Shown piece after piece: positions 3,362 to 62,308 of a stretch of DNA of 64,000 bases (the first letter of the stretch is position 1; each line of letters starts with the position of its first letter). The position numbers and the translations under genes were made by a program. The notes below the pieces were generated by a model. It saw nothing but the letters and a program-made list of their open reading frames with translations. It was not told the DNA's origin and ran no database searches. The stretch comes from Candidatus Wolfebacteria bacterium GW2011_GWE2_44_13 (GTDB lineage: Bacteria > Patescibacteriota > Minisyncoccia > UBA6257 > UBA9933): the NCBI GenBank assembly GCA_001000675.1, contig LCHW01000001.1, positions 289,424 through 353,423 of the forward strand, written 5' to 3'.

Positions 3362-4705
3362 ATGCAAGAAATTTTTAATTATTTATTTGGCGGGTTGCCT
3401 ATACCTGCGATTGTGAGTGAGATTGGACTCGGCATCTTGCAGAGTATCTTTGAGGTTTTTTCGTATGTATGGTGGATTGTGCTCCCCGTGTTTCTTTCCT
3501 TTTACTTATGGGATCTGTATGTTGCTGCAAATAAAAAAGCAGCGGGGAAGGCGGCAAAATCTGTCGTACTTGAACTTCGTATTCCAAAAGAGAATCTTCG
3601 CAGCCCAAAGGCTATGGAGCAGGTATTTGCCACACTCCACGGTACGTACGAGGGCGAGATTGGCTGGTGGGATAAAAACATCAAGGGCAAGTCGCAAAGT
3701 TCAATGTCGTTTGAAATGGTTGGACGCAGTGGCGGGGTCTATTTCTATATTCGCGTTCCCGATGGACAACGCAACTTAGTGGAGTCTGCTCTTTTTGCTC
3801 AATATCCGAACGCAGAAATTTCCATTGTCGATGACTATGTTGATTATTTGCCGGCGTCGCTTCCAAACCCCGTGTATGATGTGTGGGGCGCTGACCTGGT
3901 TCTTGATAAAGAGAGTGCATATCCGATAAAGACATACCTCTATTTTGAAGAAAAAGAAGAAGAGCAGCGTCTTGATCCGCTTACGGTTATTTTGGAAACC
4001 ATGTCAAAGTTGCGCGAGAATGAAATGATTTTCTTGCAATACGTTATCAAGGCAACGGGAGAAAAGACAAATGATTACAAAAAGAAAGGACAAGCAATCG
4101 TTGATAAGATGCTTGGCAGGGAAGTAAAGGAAGTTGTGGAGCTGGGTGTGTTTGAGCACTTGTTGTTGTGGGTGCAAAATTTCTTGACCGCGTTTATCGC
4201 TGAGCCGAAGTGGCCAGAACCACCTAAAAAGTCAGAAGCCGCTCCTAAGTCTATCGCATCCCTAAGCTTTACCGAAAAGGAAGTACTTGAAGGAATAGAA
4301 GGGAAAATTTCAAAGTTGTGTTTTGAAGTAAATGTACGTGCGGTGTATATCGACCGACAAGAGTCTTTTCATAAGGCGTATATTAGTGGTATTACAAGTG
4401 CGTTTAAGCAATTTGGATCACATCACATCAATTCATTTAAAACAAACAAAGATACATCAGTAAGCCCACCGAAAGGATTTAAGGCATGGGTATTCTCTGA
4501 TTGGAAAAAACAGCAGGAATATTTGAAAAAGCGTGCGATGTTTACTGCATATAAGGAGCGATCGATGATTAAAAAACCGCCCGTTTTCTCTATTGAAGAA
4601 TTAGCAACACTCTATCACGTACCGACATCGTTGGTGGGTGCTCCAAGTATGCGACGTATTGAGGCAAAGAAAGGCGAGCCACCAGAGAATTTACCTATTG
4701 GATAA
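3362..4705 (+). CDS. membrane protein (two N-terminal TM helices plus ~380-aa soluble domain), partner of the downstream ATPase
   Basis: 447-aa ORF with hydrophobic segments IPAIVSEIGLGILQSIFEVF and WWIVLPVFLSFYLW. It sits 17 nt upstream of the ATPase gene on the same strand. Confidence 0.5.
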   Translation: MQEIFNYLFGGLPIPAIVSEIGLGILQSIFEVFSYVWWIVLPVFLSFYLWDLYVAANKKAAGKAAKSVVLELRIPKENLRSPKAMEQVFATLHGTYEGEIGWWDKNIKGKSQSSMSFEMVGRSGGVYFYIRVPDGQRNLVESALFAQYPNAEISIVDDYVDYLPASLPNPVYDVWGADLVLDKESAYPIKTYLYFEEKEEEQRLDPLTVILETMSKLRENEMIFLQYVIKATGEKTNDYKKKGQAIVDKMLGREVKEVVELGVFEHLLLWVQNFLTAFIAEPKWPEPPKKSEAAPKSIASLSFTEKEVLEGIEGKISKLCFEVNVRAVYIDRQESFHKAYISGITSAFKQFGSHHINSFKTNKDTSVSPPKGFKAWVFSDWKKQQEYLKKRAMFTAYKERSMIKKPPVFSIEELATLYHVPTSLVGAPSMRRIEAKKGEPPENLPIG

Positions 4706-57253: not shown

Positions 57254-57511
57254 ATGGGATTTTCGCTATTTCGCGTTAAATATATTCCGGTGTATGTTGC
57301 CTTCAATGCAAATCTTGCGTGGATTGTGCAGGATTATTTATTGGCAAATGGCATTGATGCGAGTATTGAGGTTGAACCGTGTTCCCGAGAAGGTGTTTGC
57401 GAGACAAAAGACTCCTACGCCGTTTGTGTTCCTGGAAGCAAGGCTGAGGCTGCACAAAAATTTGTTGAGCAATGTGAAGCAACGAAGATAATTGGTTTTC
57501 TTGCTGCATAA
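57254..57511 (+). CDS. small DUF2007-like (PII-like fold) protein
   Basis: 85-aa ORF whose pattern (VKYIPVYVAFNANLAWIVQDYLLANGIDASIE) resembles the 'putative signal transducing protein' family. A bidirectional terminator follows. Confidence 0.35.
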   Translation: MGFSLFRVKYIPVYVAFNANLAWIVQDYLLANGIDASIEVEPCSREGVCETKDSYAVCVPGSKAEAAQKFVEQCEATKIIGFLAA

Positions 57512-57549
57512 ACAAAAAAACGCCCAAGGCGTTTTTTTGTTTATGCAAA

Positions 57550-57969
57550 TTAGTGCCACATCCCGAGAATAAGACCAAAAAGCACAAAGAGAACGAGTTG
57601 ATATCCTGCTTGAATCAAGAATCGTGCCCATGATACTTTTGCGGAGTCGTTATTCCACATAGCAGATCCTGCCACCGTTGGCATAATGAACGCCGCCCAA
57701 ATCCAAAGTGCATTTATTAATCCAGAGGCATCTGTCCATCCTGCAATATAGTAGGCAAGTACCCAGACTTGGAAAAGTGAAAGAATAAATTGAACGACAT
57801 AGAGTTTATTCGCGCGCTTCATCATTTCTCTTCTTACGATCTCGTCGAGCTTAGTTGCCCCGGTTATTTCCAGCCATTTTTTACCGAAGAGTGGTCCGTA
57901 CCAGATAAACCCCAAAACCATAGAAAGAATAGCACATACTAATACTGCCCAGTAGTTTATTGTAATCAT
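57550..57969 (-). CDS. DUF1761-like integral membrane protein
   Basis: MITINYWAVLVCAILSMVLGFIWYGPLFGKKW matches the DUF1761 N-terminal signature. Four TM helices. Confidence 0.5.
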   Translation of the reverse strand: MITINYWAVLVCAILSMVLGFIWYGPLFGKKWLEITGATKLDEIVRREMMKRANKLYVVQFILSLFQVWVLAYYIAGWTDASGLINALWIWAAFIMPTVAGSAMWNNDSAKVSWARFLIQAGYQLVLFVLFGLILGMWH

Positions 57970-58001
57970 AGTGTTATAAAAAATTATTCGACCTTTTGTT
58001 C

Positions 58002-58622
58002 TTAGTGGTTATGTTGCTTTATTGTAAAGACATGAGCATCTGCAGCTTTTGAATCTTCCGAGAGTAATAGTAGTTCTGAGTTTCCGAAGTGAAACATTGT
58101 GAGAATATCCTTCCAGTCAAGATTGTAATAGGCTGCGTAGAGCATCTTTCCTAAATCTCCGTGAGAAACGAGTAAGATATTTTCATCATCTGCGTGTGCA
58201 TCTTTTATTTCTTGTAGTGCGCGCTTTGCCCGTTCTAGAAGCTGGGGAAATGTTTCTGCGTTTTCAGCGGTAAGAAAATAGGTAACGATGTTCGTTTTGA
58301 TAATATTAGGGGCACAAAGTAATGCTATGTCCTTTACTAATTTACCAGTCATTACTCCAAAATCTCGCTCAATTAGCAGGGGCATTTTTTGGGGATCTAG
58401 TAATCCAAGTTTTTTCGTTACTATTTCTGCGGTAGCATATGCGCGACATAGGGGAGAGCTATATACGGCGTCAAAAGTAAGCCCAAGCTTTTCAATGTGT
58501 GTGGCTAATTGCTGCGCTTGTTCGATACCAATCGCAGTAAGTGGACGATCTCTGTGTCCGTTTAAAATACCCTCGGCATTATCTTCGTTTTGTCCGTGAC
58601 GCGAAAGGTATATGTGTAACAT
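58002..58622 (-). CDS. histidine phosphatase family protein (phosphoglycerate-mutase-like)
   Basis: LSRHGQNEDN... RHG catalytic motif and a second His in LLVSHGD. Confidence 0.75.
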   Translation of the reverse strand: MLHIYLSRHGQNEDNAEGILNGHRDRPLTAIGIEQAQQLATHIEKLGLTFDAVYSSPLCRAYATAEIVTKKLGLLDPQKMPLLIERDFGVMTGKLVKDIALLCAPNIIKTNIVTYFLTAENAETFPQLLERAKRALQEIKDAHADDENILLVSHGDLGKMLYAAYYNLDWKDILTMFHFGNSELLLLSEDSKAADAHVFTIKQHNH

Positions 58623-58768
58623 TAGTATAATCCTATCATATTTTGATCATAAGTTGCCAAAGGCCCTGTTTTCACTTACAATACCATGGTATTTACTACA
58701 TGGAGGGGTCGCATCCAGCCCAAGGCTGGTCCGCCCTGGGCGGAAGTGGTCGTCTACTTATTTTATAT

Positions 58769-59056
58769 ATGCATTACGTGTATATTATCAGGAGTGATAA
58801 AAATGGTAAGTTGTATAAAGGATCAACCTGTGATTTAAAAACGCGATTACGTGAACATAATAGCGGTGTGACGCAATCTACGAAGGCTTACGCTCCGTGG
58901 CGATTAGTGTATTATGCGGTATTTGCGGATAAGACAGACGCGTTGCGTGAGGAGTTGTTTTTAAAGAGTGGCAAAGGGAGAGAGCGTGTAAACTTTTTAC
59001 TTGCCAATACTCTTGTGAGATGCCAAAATACAAAGAATATTGGAGGGGTCGCATAG
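58769..59056 (+). CDS. GIY-YIG nuclease-superfamily protein
   Basis: MHYVYIIRSDKNGKLYKGSTCDLKTRLREHN carries the GIY-YIG catalytic motifs. 95 aa. The stop codon lies inside the first 15 nt of tRNA-Ser. Confidence 0.6.
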   Translation: MHYVYIIRSDKNGKLYKGSTCDLKTRLREHNSGVTQSTKAYAPWRLVYYAVFADKTDALREELFLKSGKGRERVNFLLANTLVRCQNTKNIGGVA

Positions 59057-59126
59057 TGGCCGATTGCGCTCGCTTGGAAAGCGGGTATACCGCAAGGTAT
59101 CAAGGGTTCGAATCCCTTCCCCTCCG
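59042..59126 (+). tRNA. tRNA-Ser (anticodon GGA), class II with long variable arm
   Basis: Acceptor GGAGGGG/CCCCUCC and discriminator G. Anticodon loop UUGGAAA. Variable-arm hairpin UAUACC-GCAA-GGUAUC. T-arm AAGGG-UUCGAAU-CCCUU. Confidence 0.8.
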
Positions 59127-59374
59127 CACATAGCAACATAAGCGCCTACTCTTTACGGGTAGGCGTTTATGTTGCTGCTATGAGTGGAGATAAAGAGGGA
59201 TTCGAAAACTACTTTTAAAAGCAAACTGCTTTGCTTTTAAAAGAGTCGGCGATGGAGGAGTTTCGAAGCTTGTTTCGAGTATTCGAGGAACGCTGAGTAA
59301 CGGGGGAAGAGGAATCCCTTCCCCTCCGCCATTTAGAATAGGTATTCCAATGAGATATTTGGCAAATTGATTCT

Positions 59375-59626
59375 ATGATCAAAAAAGAAATTGCTGGTGG
59401 TGTGGTGCATAAGCTACCGTTGGACTTACAAAGCGCCTTGTCGTCTAACCCTGATGCGTTAGCAGTGTGGGGAGATATTACGCCGCTCGCGCGCAACGAG
59501 TGGATTTGCTGGGTCACATCCGGCAAAAAAGAGGAGACGCGAAGCGTTCGAATCGAGAAGGCTATCTCAAAACTAAAAGGAGGAATGCGTAGACCTTGTT
59601 GTTGGGCTGGTTGCCTTCATCGGTAA
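59375..59626 (+). CDS. YdeI/OmpD-associated family protein
   Basis: LPLDLQSALSSNPDALAVWGDITPLARNEWICWVTSGKKEETRSVRIEKAISKL fits the family pattern (LPADL...A...F..L....R.EY..WI..AK..ETR..RI...I..L). Confidence 0.5.
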   Translation: MIKKEIAGGVVHKLPLDLQSALSSNPDALAVWGDITPLARNEWICWVTSGKKEETRSVRIEKAISKLKGGMRRPCCWAGCLHR

Positions 59627-59792
59627 AATAAAAAAATTAAAGATGCTTAGCCCTTTTAATCGGTGCTAAAACCTCAAAAAAGCCTTATACTAACTGTAGT
59701 GTATAGGGGCTTACCCTTGGTGTGTTGTGACGATTTTAATAGCAAGTATTTAATTGGTAAGAAATTAAATTAATTTTTAAAAGATTCGAACT

Positions 59793-60377
59793 ATGGGTAT
59801 AGAAAGCGAAAATAATTTCAAATCTCAATTCGAAAAGGCGCCGATAAAAATTGCGGAAATCGCTCCTATTGAGGAGTCGAGAAATACATGGGTACGAGAT
59901 AGGAAGCATCTTAAAGAGCTCGTCGAAGCACCACTTTTGAGTGCATGTGAAGTATTATGGGACAAAAACATTCGAACCTTAAGTACGAGCGCAAACACGA
60001 AGGATATTAAATATGGGTCAGCGCATCTTATAATTGATTTTGATAGCTTGTCCGATGAAAATAAAAAGATCGGAGAGAATCTCGGAGAAGTATTCTGGGG
60101 AGATAACATGAATCAGTTAAAAATCGAAATTCCAGTTACAGAAAGTAGTACGACTAATGATATTAAGAGTCTCGCCGATTCTATCGCTCATAAGTTTGGA
60201 AACCAAAAAATGACATGGGCCCCTTTCTATACGCTCGAACAAGTGAGACGAATTTACGGCATAGACCCAAATGATGAAGCGTATGGAGTAGATGACTTTA
60301 CTAGTCAATTTCATTATGATTCTGAACGAAAGCTATTCTTTTTGAGCGAAGAGCATGCTAGAAAATCAAAAGATTAA
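59793..60377 (+). CDS. hypothetical protein (AT-rich accessory gene)
   Basis: 194-aa ORF with no recognisable motifs. Its composition is visibly AT-richer than the core genes. Confidence 0.4.
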   Translation: MGIESENNFKSQFEKAPIKIAEIAPIEESRNTWVRDRKHLKELVEAPLLSACEVLWDKNIRTLSTSANTKDIKYGSAHLIIDFDSLSDENKKIGENLGEVFWGDNMNQLKIEIPVTESSTTNDIKSLADSIAHKFGNQKMTWAPFYTLEQVRRIYGIDPNDEAYGVDDFTSQFHYDSERKLFFLSEEHARKSKD

Positions 60378-60381
60378 GCTT

Positions 60382-60720
60382 ATGAAAAAGGAATTTGGAT
60401 TATTGTTTTGGATACATATTCTGCTTTTAATACCGGCATATCTTTCCCCTTTATTTATAGACTGGAAGCTTATCGTTATTGGGATAGTTATTTTGCAAAT
60501 TCAGTATTGGGTTATTGATGGATGCATCCTAACTCACCTAGAAATGGGGAAGGATAAGAATGAAACTTTTATTTGGTATTATCTTAGTAAAAGGTATCCG
60601 AATATTAATCCCAAAAGAACGAAATTTGTCATTAGGGTCATTGTCCCAGTTGCTCTTGTAATGGCAGGATTTTTTCTCCAGACTAAATTTGGATTAGAGC
60701 CTTTGATAAAAATATTTTAA
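60382..60720 (+). CDS. hypothetical small membrane protein (DUF2784-like)
   Basis: Start MKKEFGLLFW. Three or four TM helices. DGCILTHLE resembles the conserved Cys-containing loop of that family. Confidence 0.35.
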   Translation: MKKEFGLLFWIHILLLIPAYLSPLFIDWKLIVIGIVILQIQYWVIDGCILTHLEMGKDKNETFIWYYLSKRYPNINPKRTKFVIRVIVPVALVMAGFFLQTKFGLEPLIKIF

Positions 60721-60739
60721 CTTTAATATCCTTGAGTTT

Positions 60740-61105
60740 ATGAACGACCATACAGCAGATGAGCTACAGGAGATTCTTCGACCAATAGCGTCGCTTATTA
60801 GTAAATCTGAAAAAGCGCAGCAGAAGCTTACGCCAGGAACATGGCAACGCACGATGCTGCGAGATAACCTCAAGGCGTTGCACATTGCGTTTTCATTACT
60901 AAGTAAAGATATTAGTGATATGCATAATTTCACTCGGGGCGATTTCCCCGAAGCCCTTCAGGCACTTACTTCGATGATAAGCAAAGTTGAAAAAGCCCAG
61001 ACTAAATTTTTACCCGGTACTTCTCATTACACATTGCAAAAAAATAGGCTTAAGGCATTGCGCGTTGCGTCGTTTGTTATAGCTAAATCATTAAATTCTG
61101 CGTAA
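60740..61105 (+). CDS. hypothetical protein built from two ~45-aa tandem repeats
   Basis: ASLISKSEKAQQKLTPGTWQRTMLRDNLKALHIAFSLL aligns with TSMISKVEKAQTKFLPGTSHYTLQKNRLKALRVASFVI. Confidence 0.45.
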   Translation: MNDHTADELQEILRPIASLISKSEKAQQKLTPGTWQRTMLRDNLKALHIAFSLLSKDISDMHNFTRGDFPEALQALTSMISKVEKAQTKFLPGTSHYTLQKNRLKALRVASFVIAKSLNSA

Positions 61106-61122
61106 GTAAGAATATATACACC

Positions 61123-61431
61123 ATGGCAACCTACATTCTCGTAGCAAGTATTGCGGCAATTATACAAATTGGGACAATCTATTTTTTGCGGGCAAACTTT
61201 TTAGGAAGTTTTCTTTATGCAGTACCCTTTATTTTGATTTCTCAGTTCCTATTCCTATGGAGTTATGCAAGCGCGCCAAAATTTCTTACTATCTGGTTTA
61301 TTGTTACGGCATTAACAAACAGCCTCGCATTTTTACTTGGGTACTTTTTATGGCACGAACAAATATCTGCCGTAAACATCGTCGGGATGGTGCTAATTGT
61401 TGGAGGGGTTATTTTACTGCAAATAAAGTAA
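61123..61431 (+). CDS. SMR/DMT-like small four-TM membrane protein
   Basis: 102 aa with four hydrophobic helices, in the size class of small multidrug-resistance proteins. No diagnostic Glu in TM1 was confirmed. Confidence 0.4.
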   Translation: MATYILVASIAAIIQIGTIYFLRANFLGSFLYAVPFILISQFLFLWSYASAPKFLTIWFIVTALTNSLAFLLGYFLWHEQISAVNIVGMVLIVGGVILLQIK

Positions 61432-61440
61432 TATATAGTA

Positions 61441-62162
61441 TGTCTAAAAACAGATCCTCTTGTCCTCCAACACTAGAGAAAAAGCTTAATAGGGAGGTTC
61501 ATTATAGATGTCCAATTTGTGGTAACTTCCCCTTAGTTCGAGCTCATACGATCAAACTCTATGCCGAAGTTGGGTGGCATTACGATTACCTTTTAGCAAT
61601 ATGTATTGCATGTGAAAAAAAGGTAGAAAATGGTGAAATAGAAAGGAATACGTTACATACTATTAAGAATAGTATTAAAAAATCTTTTTCTGAGACTACT
61701 CGCAATAAGCCCTATCAAATCGCACCGATTATCGGAGGCGATGTATATGTGGGGAGCAACTACATATCTTCGGTTAATATAATTTTTGCATATCGCGGTC
61801 TGCCAATTTTATGGTTCGAAGATGAAGGAGGAGTAAAAACACTCAACGCTCGATTTTATGATGTAAGGGGTACTGTAATTACTGCAATTGATAAAAATAT
61901 GTGGACTGCGGATAGAAATCGATTTTATGACATTGAGGTTGATACTAGTAGTAGGGGAATGGATATGGAAATAATGGGCCGTAGTGATGATACGCATATT
62001 AAATTTACAATTTGTGATAAAGGTATCATTTTGGGGTGTTCCGAATTTTATATACCCGGCGAGAAAATTAAAATTTTAGAAGATGGCACATTAAATATTG
62101 GAACAAATAAGTTTTCCAACAACTCTATTTTAAATTGTGCTATTGCGTTCAATTTCGACTAG
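61441..62162 (+). CDS. HNH-endonuclease-domain protein with a C-terminal domain of unknown function
   Basis: Start at ATG 61441; the six-frame ORF from 61257 is an out-of-context extension. CPICGN ... RAHTIKL ... DYLLAICIACEKK is an HNH (ββα-Me) zinc-knuckle motif. AT-rich. Confidence 0.5.
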
Positions 62163-62308
62163 AATTTAACGATTGAATAGTTCTCTATTGTGCTATACCT
62201 AAAATATTGCTCTAAAGGAAAAAGATATTCATACTAGTATTGCGCTGATATAAAGCAAATATTAAGAAAGAGTATGTTTTAAAGCCAATAGCGGGTTCTA
62301 TTATTAAA

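Follow-up and report, generated by a model that had tools for sequence, protein, structure and literature searches.

Why does a gene for a small GIY-YIG nuclease stand wedged against a transfer RNA gene, with pieces of that same tRNA repeated on both of its sides? The question is raised by a locus in a 64,000-nucleotide stretch of the genome of Candidatus Wolfebacteria bacterium GW2011_GWE2_44_13 (contig LCHW01000001.1, positions 289,424 to 353,423), the whole of which is here called the window. Within it, an open reading frame (ORF) for a nuclease of 95 amino acids (aa) runs into the gene for tRNA-Ser(GGA). The answer favoured by the present analysis, at a probability of roughly two in three, is that the window contains a member of a family of very small selfish cassettes which colonise the tRNA genes of the candidate phyla radiation (CPR)/Patescibacteria, and that the unit is a mobile nuclease cassette which duplicates part of its target. 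Its mobility is well supported by the comparison of related loci; the chemistry by which it would cleave DNA is what we infer from the nature of the enzyme and the geometry of its sites.

The complete tRNA-Ser(GGA) gene occupies positions 59042-59127 of the plus strand, which is also the strand of all other features below for which one is given. It was identified by ARAGORN and by the Rfam tRNA model (52.3 bits), is near-identical to the tRNA of orthologous loci that lack the cassette, and would represent the regenerated, functional gene. Its first nucleotides are repeated upstream. The initial annotation of the window had described a 13-nt repeat at 58702-58714, which is borne out and in fact extends to 14 exact nucleotides, TGGAGGGGTCGCAT (58701-58714 and 59041-59054), through the inclusion of the T at tRNA position -1. 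The upstream copy of tRNA nucleotides 1-13 (GGAGGGGTCGCAT, 58702-58714), designated a, is the displaced or duplicated 5' end of the gene and has a counterpart in about 70 other loci. On the 3' side, the 18 nt from the T-loop to the 3' end of the tRNA (GAATCCCTTCCCCTCCGC, 59110-59127) recur exactly at 59312-59329 as a second copy, designated z; this repeat had also been recognised and is real, although it had been placed about 2 nt too high, at 59314-59331. Both repeats occur in two copies only in the 64-kb window, the 5' repeat even when 2 mismatches are allowed, and for the 3' repeat the chance expectation is 0.01 matches even at 3 allowed mismatches. A chance origin was ruled out, since the repeats are exact and unique in the window and since repeats of the same kind recur locus by locus elsewhere, each matched to the tRNA of its own locus.

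The 327 nt between the two 5' copies had been taken to consist essentially of the nuclease ORF. This description fails, as it overlooked the structures that come first: a double hairpin (HP) of 30 nt (58715-58744), then a continuation of 5-8 nt of tRNA sequence and a spacer of 16-19 nt, and only then the ORF. The continuation, designated d, reads AGTGGTCG (58745-58752) where the tRNA has AGTGGCCG, and corresponds approximately to tRNA nucleotides 14-21 with one mismatch. The short AT-rich spacer before the start codon (58753-58768) is alignable with the spacers of two filled loci, L081 and L082 (L-numbers such as L085 and L078 are working labels of the compared loci, and the window locus is termed WIN). 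The ORF itself (58769-59056) ends within the tRNA gene. Its last 15 nt, including the TAG stop codon, are tRNA nucleotides 1-15, and the earlier claim that the stop is built from tRNA positions 13-15 thus stands. The order on the 5' side is therefore native promoter, tRNA 1-13, HP, tRNA 14-18(21), spacer, ORF and complete tRNA, and the cassette measures about 340 nt including the duplicated nucleotides 1-13. The promoter is a sigma-70-like sequence, TTGCCA-17 nt-TACAAT (58654-58682; 10/12 in a consensus scan), which is predicted to be the native tRNA promoter and now stands before the cassette. An orthologous TTGCCA-17-TACAAT promoter is found ahead of the tRNA where the cassette is missing (L085, L134) or only the hairpin is present (L105), and ahead of the upstream tRNA copy in L081 and L082. 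Another promoter-like sequence (TTGCCA-17-CAAAAT, with an upstream TG) is located at 59001-59029, within the 3' end of the ORF and at a distance of 13 nt from the tRNA. L082 retains it and L081 does so in part; the cassette may in this way supply a promoter of its own for the displaced tRNA.

The same arrangement recurs next to many other tRNA genes. A scan of relatives, with one genome taken per species, yielded 80 loci with a homologue of the nuclease (52-70% identity). All records with a named lineage belong to Patescibacteria/CPR, and include Uhr-, Giovannoni-, Buchanan-, Moran-, Taylor-, Nealson-, Colwell-, Magasanik-, Yanofsky-, Doudna-, Vogel-, Falkow-, Levy-, Beckwith- and Gottesmanbacteria, Microgenomates and others. 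A tRNA gene follows the ORF on the same strand in 77 of the 80 loci, and the other three end at contig ends. The tRNA starts between -58 and +114 nt from the stop codon, mostly between -22 and +17, and the 77 tRNAs comprise 72 for Ser (anticodons GCT, TGA, CGA and GGA), four for Tyr and one for Cys. The HP motif precedes the ORF in every locus (80/80). About 70 loci could be parsed automatically and exhibit a common order, namely tRNA 1..x, HP, tRNA x+1..x+5/6, a spacer of 0-41 nt, the ORF and the complete tRNA. The family cassette consists of the 30-nt HP, a few tRNA-like nucleotides, a short spacer and a GIY-YIG gene of 80-95 aa. The original suggestion that a small mobile GIY-YIG cassette had targeted the tRNA gene holds in the light of this survey, tRNA-end repeats accompanying the cassette in about 70 loci other than the window.

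The duplicated 5' piece varies in length from 8 to 57 nt among the loci, and the points of entry fall into a few classes. The value of x is 8, in the linker past the acceptor stem, in 8 loci; 12-14, at the start of the D-loop, in 43; 20-21, at the end of the D-loop, in 5; and 35-36, in the anticodon loop, in 12, with x=23 and x=27 in single loci. All points of entry coincide with a linker, a loop or a loop edge of the cloverleaf. More distant GIY-YIG subfamilies found near tRNA-Ser(GGA) and tRNA-Arg follow the same plan with other hairpins, and their x lies at about 24, at 36/37 or in the T-loop. More than one copy of the cassette is present within about 6 kb in 8 of the 80 loci, some copies standing before tRNA-Glu or tRNA-Trp, and in L017 two cassettes are nested (a13-HP-ORF1-a36-HP-ORF2-tRNA). 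ORF-less units also occur, in L078 before tRNA-Ser(TGA) and tRNA-Arg(CCG), and in L073 between the ORF and the tRNA. In L002, L033 and L010 the relic tRNA copy is preceded by the tail of an older ORF (...SGKGRERIKYLL...), and because of these tails new copies appear to land beside the tRNA and to push the older ones outward. An apparent duplication of the leader, considered as a sign of long staggered cuts, was rejected as such, since it consists mostly of the tails of older ORFs left by serial insertions; L105 is the remaining possible case of a true leader duplication. A phage origin of the family was likewise discarded, the viral collection having given one weak protein match with no tRNA nearby.

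Orthologous sites were compared across relatives, as the initial annotation had proposed, and the ORF proved to be polymorphic among them. Metagenome contigs scanned with a 27-mer of the window tRNA gave 80 loci, 68 of them with at least 450 nt of upstream sequence. Neither ORF nor HP is present in 63 of these 68 related tRNA-Ser(GGA) loci. The remaining five comprise two with a cassette of another subfamily on this same tRNA, one with a cassette on the neighbouring tRNA-Arg, and two, identical in sequence, with an HP and no ORF. Filled and empty loci were compared by direct reading; a MAFFT alignment misplaced the promoters. The syntenic order HtpX (84-86% aa identity)-GGDEF-...-tRNA-Ser-OmdA is common to the window and several of the loci. 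Within this order L085/L158 and L134 have no insert either before or behind the tRNA, and the window and its close relatives L082 and L081 are filled. A housekeeping YhbQ-like gene fixed at this position in all relatives, which had been named as the alternative, is accordingly not what these loci contain. A decayed, ORF-less relic is found in L105/L121, where an upstream tRNA copy with a 1-nt deletion is followed by an HP close to that of the window, with a damaged second stem, by the continuation AGTTG, and then by a diverged second copy of the 34-nt leader; in L105 this second leader copy is 20% diverged from the first. L105 and L121 also carry a different YhbQ-like GIY-YIG ORF (MHTVYILKCADGKPYTGCTENLEERLQRHNNG...) about 190 nt downstream of their tRNA-Ser(GGA), the gene with the upstream HP relic; in these genomes the surroundings of tRNA genes seem to be a meeting point of several GIY-YIG lineages.

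The protein belongs to the GIY-YIG superfamily, in its UPF0213/YhbQ-SLX1 branch. The ORF matches Pfam family PF01541 above the curated cut-off (E=4.5e-16) and encodes a bare catalytic domain of the UPF0213/SLX1 type, in which residues Y5, Y16, G18, R26, H30, N31, E61 and E62 are invariant or near-invariant in the alignment of homologues. A family profile compared with the PDB matched 1zg2 (UPF0213 protein BH0048) at 5e-11, 1ywl (EF2693) at 8e-7, SLX1 at about 1e-3 and I-TevI at 0.12. The AlphaFold model (pLDDT 86.5) exhibits a GIY-YIG fold with the element order E-E-H-E-H-H, residues 87-95, which are encoded by the tRNA overlap, being disordered. Foldseek retrieved 1zg2, SLX1 (rmsd 2.1 A over 72 columns), the catalytic domain of I-TevI and the N-terminal domain of UvrC, and the ranking by fold agrees with that by profile in placing UPF0213/SLX1 nearer than I-TevI or UvrC. 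Pfam, AlphaFold and Foldseek all revealed the catalytic domain only, and no DNA-binding module of the kind that reads a 14-40 bp target. A family search gave no match to a transposase, and the HP at one end is the sole end structure of the cassette. The label "homing-endonuclease-like" given to the gene is apt insofar as it denotes a GIY-YIG nuclease; the bare catalytic domain is not a classical multi-domain homing endonuclease.

In comparison with L082, the protein of which is 91% identical, dN/dS is 0.03, and four-fold degenerate sites are only about 50% identical. The ORF is therefore under purifying selection, and with its invariant catalytic residues and confident fold it encodes a working protein. 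Its extent has been misjudged in databases. The public gene call P0001 (118 aa, of an uncultured "ACD" bacterium from an aquifer) takes as its start the ATG at 58700, one base ahead of the tRNA copy, and translates the HP, whereas the homologues begin at MxYVY. Over-long calls of homologues bear N-terminal extensions, for example WRRGCQPKAGPPWAE and GEVAASPRLVGLGPKW, which are one nucleotide sequence in different frames, and three reading frames are represented among these false extensions. At the other end, several homologue C-termini (GEVA*, IGGVA*) are the translated 5' end of the tRNA.

The HP of the window, CCAGCC-CAA-GGCTGG followed by TCCGCC-CTG-GGCGGA, is situated at the D-loop start of the upstream tRNA copy and is the sole such pair in the window. 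The predicted fold consists of two adjacent 15-nt hairpins. Across 50 distinct versions of the motif, 99.7% of the stem cells are Watson-Crick paired, and 95 cells carry changes in both partners (positions 1:15, 3:13, 16:30 and 18:28). Covariation scores 0.405, compared with 0.135 in shuffles, and none of 500 shuffles attained the observed value. A single long 30-nt hairpin was ruled out, showing no covariation and scoring below the shuffles. The invariant core is GCC-CNA-GGC then GCC-TNG-GGC, and the consensus is identical when read on either strand. G-T/U pairs occupy only 3 of 600 cells. Since such pairs are nearly absent and the consensus is the same on both strands, the evidence favours a hairpin or cruciform acting in DNA rather than an RNA structure. 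Beyond the HP, the identity of d to the tRNA of its own locus (69 loci) is 1.0, 1.0, 0.93, 0.90, 0.84, 0.66 and 0.43 at positions 1-7 and then at background, so that d ends sharply 5-6 nt past the HP.

Variants of the hairpins were observed. L017 carries an HP with 5-nt loops (TCAGCC-TCTAC-GGCTGA then TCCGCC-GAAGA-GGCGGA, 2624-2680), L126 a different double hairpin in the T-loop of a tRNA-Arg copy (oriented copy, 3659-3733) and L117 a single hairpin (oriented copy, 479-528), and additional hairpins lie between the two units in L015, L065, L070 and L079. In the viral collection, the core pattern of the HP had 44 matches, nearly all of them (41) ordinary single hairpins. Apparently true double hairpins with the same consensus were found on three viral contigs (L209, 1406-1435; L236, 3343-3372; L240, 8291-8320), with no tRNA or GIY-YIG gene near any of the three. 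In the window, a simple scan also detected a weak terminator-like hairpin at 58737-58756, which spans the second 3' arm of the HP, d and spacer, and is followed by CTTATTTTAT. Its conservation in other loci is not obvious, and it may have a role as an attenuator.

What, then, is the origin of the tRNA piece in front of the HP? In most loci, including those at tRNA-Tyr and tRNA-Cys, it is an exact copy of the local tRNA. L078 is of particular value here, for an identical HP and d (GCGGC) stand before two different tRNA-Ser genes 90 nt apart. In the ORF-less unit at tRNA-Ser(TGA) the upstream piece agrees with the local tRNA at 27/27 positions, and in the ORF-bearing unit at tRNA-Ser(GCT) it agrees with its own tRNA at 12/15. 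Because of this pair, the HP and d would appear to travel with the element and the left piece to be made from the target, which points to a target duplication from about +1 to x. In the window and its two filled relatives the tRNA 5' ends differ (GGAGGGG in the window, GGAGGAG in L082 and GGAGAAG in L081) and each upstream copy is identical to its own tRNA, while neutral sites in the ORF are near saturation among the three. The sequence of d is AGTGGTC in all three and the window tRNA has AGTGGCC, so d does not track the tRNA. The tracking by the upstream copy may result from re-insertion with a fresh duplication, from gene conversion, or from selection for pairing with the 3' strand of the tRNA in the transcript. 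Uncompensated mismatches occur in the upstream copy of about a quarter of the loci, and decay after insertion therefore fits better than constraint.

A mechanism can be proposed on this basis. The cassette would enter a tRNA gene at a position that codes for a loop, in the window after nucleotide 13 at the start of the D-loop. Nucleotides 1..x would come to lie on both sides of the cassette, a complete tRNA being rebuilt directly behind the ORF and the old 5' end being left, interrupted by the HP, beside the native promoter. With the tRNA rebuilt in this way, the essential and probably single-copy tRNA would survive and the nuclease gene would come under the tRNA promoter. The breaks would be made by the encoded nuclease, which would nick extruded tRNA-like DNA in a staggered, structure-directed way, at its base and at a loop, a proposal made because the enzyme is SLX1-like and because the sites have the geometry of loops and stem bases. 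The HP end may serve as the enzyme's handle on the element, and the 5-6 nt of d suggest that cutting or strand switching takes place at a constant spacing from the foot of the HP. Spread between orthologous genes would also be possible through break repair, that is, by homing. The ORF and the tRNA would be co-transcribed from the promoter at 58654-58682, and RNase P would free the tRNA, in the window removing the stop codon as well. The direct repeats could further permit precise loss of the cassette or its tandem amplification by unequal exchange.

The cassette behaves as a homing or transposable element, yet it fails the tests that define both classes, since it lacks the DNA-binding domain of a homing endonuclease and the transposase and inverted ends of a transposon. 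A bolder and distinctly more doubtful interpretation is that it represents a new, minimal class of DNA transposon, the sole enzyme of which is a bare SLX1-like GIY-YIG nuclease that recognises the shape of DNA. The shapes in question would be the extruded hairpins or cloverleaf of the tRNA gene together with the element's own double-hairpin end. Nicks would fall at the base of the acceptor stem and in a loop, the length of the duplication would be set by the geometry of the tRNA (8, 13, 21, 36 or about 57 nt), and the invaded gene would be rebuilt automatically. The insert on the 3' side of the tRNA, termed Y and discussed below, would then be a second, non-coding element that performs the mirror-image trick at the 3' end.

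Several observations weigh against a mobile cassette that duplicates its target. The HP sits inside the left copy of the repeat, which a simple duplication by staggered cuts fails to explain, and the sharp 5-6-nt d is not accounted for by the model. We know of no catalytic domain of 80-95 aa without a DNA-binding domain that acts as a site-specific homing enzyme or transposase. A few binned records bear non-CPR labels as deposited. The tracking of the own tRNA in the window, L082 and L081 could be due to a functional constraint at the RNA level or to gene conversion. Finally, not all upstream pieces are local. In L031, L032 and L042 a 36-nt piece derives from another tRNA-Ser of identical anticodon (19-20/36 identical) and is conserved between genomes; the middle copy in L017 differs from the functional tRNA; and one unit of L078 carries foreign tRNA-Arg pieces, with a hairpin, before tRNA-Arg(CCG). 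The piece must therefore sometimes move with the cassette, or else the resident tRNA has been replaced.

These foreign pieces are at the same time an argument for pure intronless homing, in which the unit of tRNA 5' fragment, HP, d and ORF moves only by double-strand-break repair between homologous tRNA loci, and the upstream fragment is the relic of one ancient accident or is carried by the donor, instead of being generated anew with every insertion. The second leader copy of L105, diverged as if imported, is also in keeping with homing, and a free-standing GIY-YIG homing enzyme, SegB, is known from a tRNA cluster of phage T4. The fragment is nevertheless exactly local on Tyr, Cys and many different Ser genes, and the two paralogous tRNAs of L078 with the same HP and d present a pattern that carriage by a donor cannot give. 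The protein, moreover, has no DNA-binding domain for a long recognition site. Homing as the only route is for these reasons considered unlikely; insertion with duplication and homing by break repair probably both occur.

The repeat on the 3' side of the tRNA poses a question of its own. It had been interpreted as the boundary of an integrative element, but the two copies enclose only a non-coding, structured segment of 184 nt, the insert Y (59128-59311), which is absent from L085/L158, L134 and L082 and has a fold z-score of -7.4. Y comprises a long hairpin at 59132-59176, the T-arm copied in inverted orientation (AGGGATTCGAA, 59196-59206), a second hairpin, the loop of which includes ...CAAACTGCTTTG... 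(59212-59243), and one more hairpin. In predicted folds the inverted T-arm copy pairs with z, and the resulting helix encloses two hairpins. Inserts with a repeated tRNA 3' end, of about 100-340 nt, lie behind 18 other tRNAs (Ser, Tyr and Arg), with or without a GIY-YIG cassette. Among them, 13 inserts of 113-211 nt, that of the window included, share the inverted T-arm copy, which follows the local tRNA, and the hairpin loop ...CAAACTGCTTTG... is common to several. Five closer relatives of Y have a consensus three-way junction with 14 compensated pairs. The shared size, internal structure, loop and compensated pairs argue for an element in its own right and against a random remnant of deletion. 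It is thus best regarded as a second, independent small non-coding element at the T-loop/3' end of the same tRNA, apparently following a mirror-image logic, and not as the remnant of an island.

The alternative for the 3' repeat only is that its copies are the attL and attR sites of a tyrosine-integrase island, inserted at the T-loop/3' end and later almost wholly deleted. An 18-nt identity block from the T-loop to the tRNA 3' end is indeed the classical integrase signature, and the inverted T-arm copy in Y resembles the inverted core sites of att regions. No integrase and no ORF with a family match lies in the 184 nt between the repeats, however, and the AT-rich genes downstream lie outside them. 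Inserts of similar size and shared structure stand behind the 18 other tRNAs in unrelated CPR genomes, and the conserved hairpin loop, the compensated pairs and the strength of the fold all speak for a small element and against deletion remnants. A vanished island is hence an improbable source of the repeat. Known RNA families (riboswitch, ribozyme, intron and tmRNA) were sought in 57500-60500 and in the Y inserts of seven other loci, and only tRNAs were found, with no Rfam match for Y or for those seven inserts. Y-type inserts were noted in L006, L007, L015, L045, L063, L064, L065, L077, L095, L097, L098, L112, L113 and L130. In two near-identical examples, L095 (about 1026-1055) and L130 (about 1684-1713), the loop of the conserved hairpin is inverted (AAAGCAGTTT versus AAACTGCTTT), as would be expected of the flipping of a DNA palindrome.

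As for the cassette, a use to the host has also to be considered. In such an operon a conserved cellular nuclease would be co-transcribed with class-II tRNAs, and the tRNA fragment and HP would act as an RNA leader governing processing or stability; the 5'-most copy could, for example, pair with the 3' acceptor strand of the tRNA and hold the messenger RNA in a tRNA-like fold until RNase P cuts. ORF, HP, d and spacer are indeed under strong purifying selection, the upstream piece follows the changes in the acceptor stem of its own tRNA in the window, L082 and L081, the outermost copy in L017 is that of the functional tRNA, the entry points are exactly those at which the tRNA fold tolerates insertions, and the stop codon lies within the tRNA. 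A useful operon would hardly be missing from 63 of 68 related orthologous loci, syntenic ones among them, nor is it easily reconciled with several copies per locus, the many tRNA species involved, and the ORF-less and decayed copies. In about a quarter of the loci the upstream piece has uncompensated mismatches in the acceptor stem, and the near-absence of G-U pairs is unusual for an RNA structure; the HP consensus, too, is the same on both strands. Service to the host is therefore regarded as very unlikely. That the segment from the HP to the second 5' copy is a degenerate or unusual tRNA intron, spliced out so as to join the upstream 13 nt to the remaining tRNA, is scarcely credible, for although 35/36, a group I intron site in Patescibacteria tRNAs (PMC13011429), is among the entry points and all of these are linker or loop positions, no ribozyme or Rfam family apart from tRNA is found in 57500-60500 at E up to 10, the supposed intron would be a 30-nt hairpin and an ORF only, the downstream tRNA is complete without splicing, and the upstream copy stops 5-6 nt past the HP.

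Full-text searches of the literature turned up no account of a GIY-YIG cassette that combines a double hairpin with a duplicated 5' part of a tRNA. The design is unusual and apparently undescribed, whereas a selfish nuclease gene that targets a tRNA gene is of an already known kind. The Seg family comprises the free-standing GIY-YIG homing endonuclease genes of T-even phages, and SegB lies in the tRNA gene cluster of T4. The likeness consists in an intronless and inteinless GIY-YIG ORF beside tRNA genes, in its presence or absence between related genomes and in a plausible spread by break repair. Seg proteins, however, are of 200-250 aa and possess DNA-binding domains, in contrast to the bare catalytic domain of 80-95 aa described here, and Seg genes have neither a double hairpin nor a duplicated tRNA fragment, nor are they inserted inside a tRNA gene. 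The hosts also differ, being phages in the one case and CPR chromosomes in the other, with a single weak match in the viral collection. By sequence and fold, the nearest proteins are the UPF0213/YhbQ family and the nuclease domain of SLX1, which have the same size and the same catalytic residues. SLX1 acts with SLX4 on branched DNA, and for genes of the YhbQ type neither mobility nor linkage to tRNA genes is known to us.

Elements with a tyrosine integrase resemble the cassette in that they insert in a tRNA gene, replace the displaced segment by a duplicate and leave a direct repeat of the tRNA end. They duplicate the 3' part, encode an integrase and measure kilobases, while the cassette duplicates the 5' part, measures about 0.3 kb and has the GIY-YIG nuclease as its sole enzyme. 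In the mitochondria of Allomyces, double-hairpin elements and a mobile endonuclease ORF with a duplicated atp6 segment have reportedly been described by Paquin, Lang and co-workers. They share with the present family a G+C-rich double hairpin beside the ORF of a mobile endonuclease, and a host gene kept functional by a duplicated piece of itself, and differ in the setting (fungal mitochondria), in the target (the 3' end of a protein-coding gene) and in their unrelated sequences. Closer to the present hosts, Tsurumaki et al. 2024 (PMC11270868) reported GIY-YIG ORFs in insertions of CPR rRNA genes, which are neither group I nor group II introns and are located at the tips or bases of stem-loops. 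The similarity is one of arrangement: a CPR host and a GIY-YIG ORF in a non-intron insertion of a structural RNA gene. The gene invaded there is for rRNA instead of tRNA, and neither a hairpin end nor a duplication of the host gene is reported in that study. Nakagawa et al. 2026 (PMC13011429) described group I introns that occupy position 35/36 in the tRNA genes of Patescibacteria, so that phylum and one entry position are shared. The cassette, in contrast, contains no ribozyme, and its tRNA is complete and unspliced; GIY-YIG proteins, tRNA-Ser, hairpins and duplications are not mentioned in that work.

The cassette is of wider interest on several counts. CPR genomes are very small, and each of their tRNAs is probably single-copy and essential, so that a resident parasite has to mend the damage that it causes. 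The cassette would be a compact solution to this demand, by which the 5' part of the gene is duplicated and its promoter taken over. If it is true that a bare nuclease of 80-95 aa and a 30-nt hairpin suffice for targeted insertion, the unit would rank among the smallest autonomous mobile units and would be a candidate for a structure-directed DNA tool. Some upstream relics stem from a different tRNA with the same anticodon, and the cassette may thus explain part of the replacement and turnover of tRNA genes in CPR. It also explains N-terminal ORF extensions that were mis-called through translation of the hairpin, as well as unannotated tRNA fragments, and it connects with the unexplained GIY-YIG insertions of CPR rRNA genes.

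Two further features of the neighbourhood deserve mention. An imperfect inverted repeat of 11+8 nt (TTTTGATCATA...TTGCCAAA at 58641-58661 versus TTTGGCAA...TATGATCAAAA at 59358-59384) brackets the unit of cassette, tRNA and Y. It was considered as a pair of terminal inverted repeats and set aside, its arms overlapping the -35 box of the promoter on the left and the start codon of OmdA on the right; the same inverted repeat does not occur at the flanks of the empty locus L085, and it is probably due to chance. Downstream, an AT-rich block at about 59627-62308, between OmdA and an Imm5-like gene, contains five ORFs without family matches (G+C 33-40%). The initial annotation was right to call these AT-rich accessory ORFs, but their implied link to the tRNA repeats and to an integrative element does not hold, as they lie beyond OmdA and are not bounded by the repeats. 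An integrase island spanning them was rejected on the same grounds: OmdA intervenes, and no third copy of a tRNA end was found in the window to bound the AT-rich genes. In L085, OmdA and the Imm5-like gene are adjacent, with a gap of 32 nt, and because OmdA there directly precedes the Imm5-like gene, the block appears to be a third, separate accessory insertion of about 2.7 kb.

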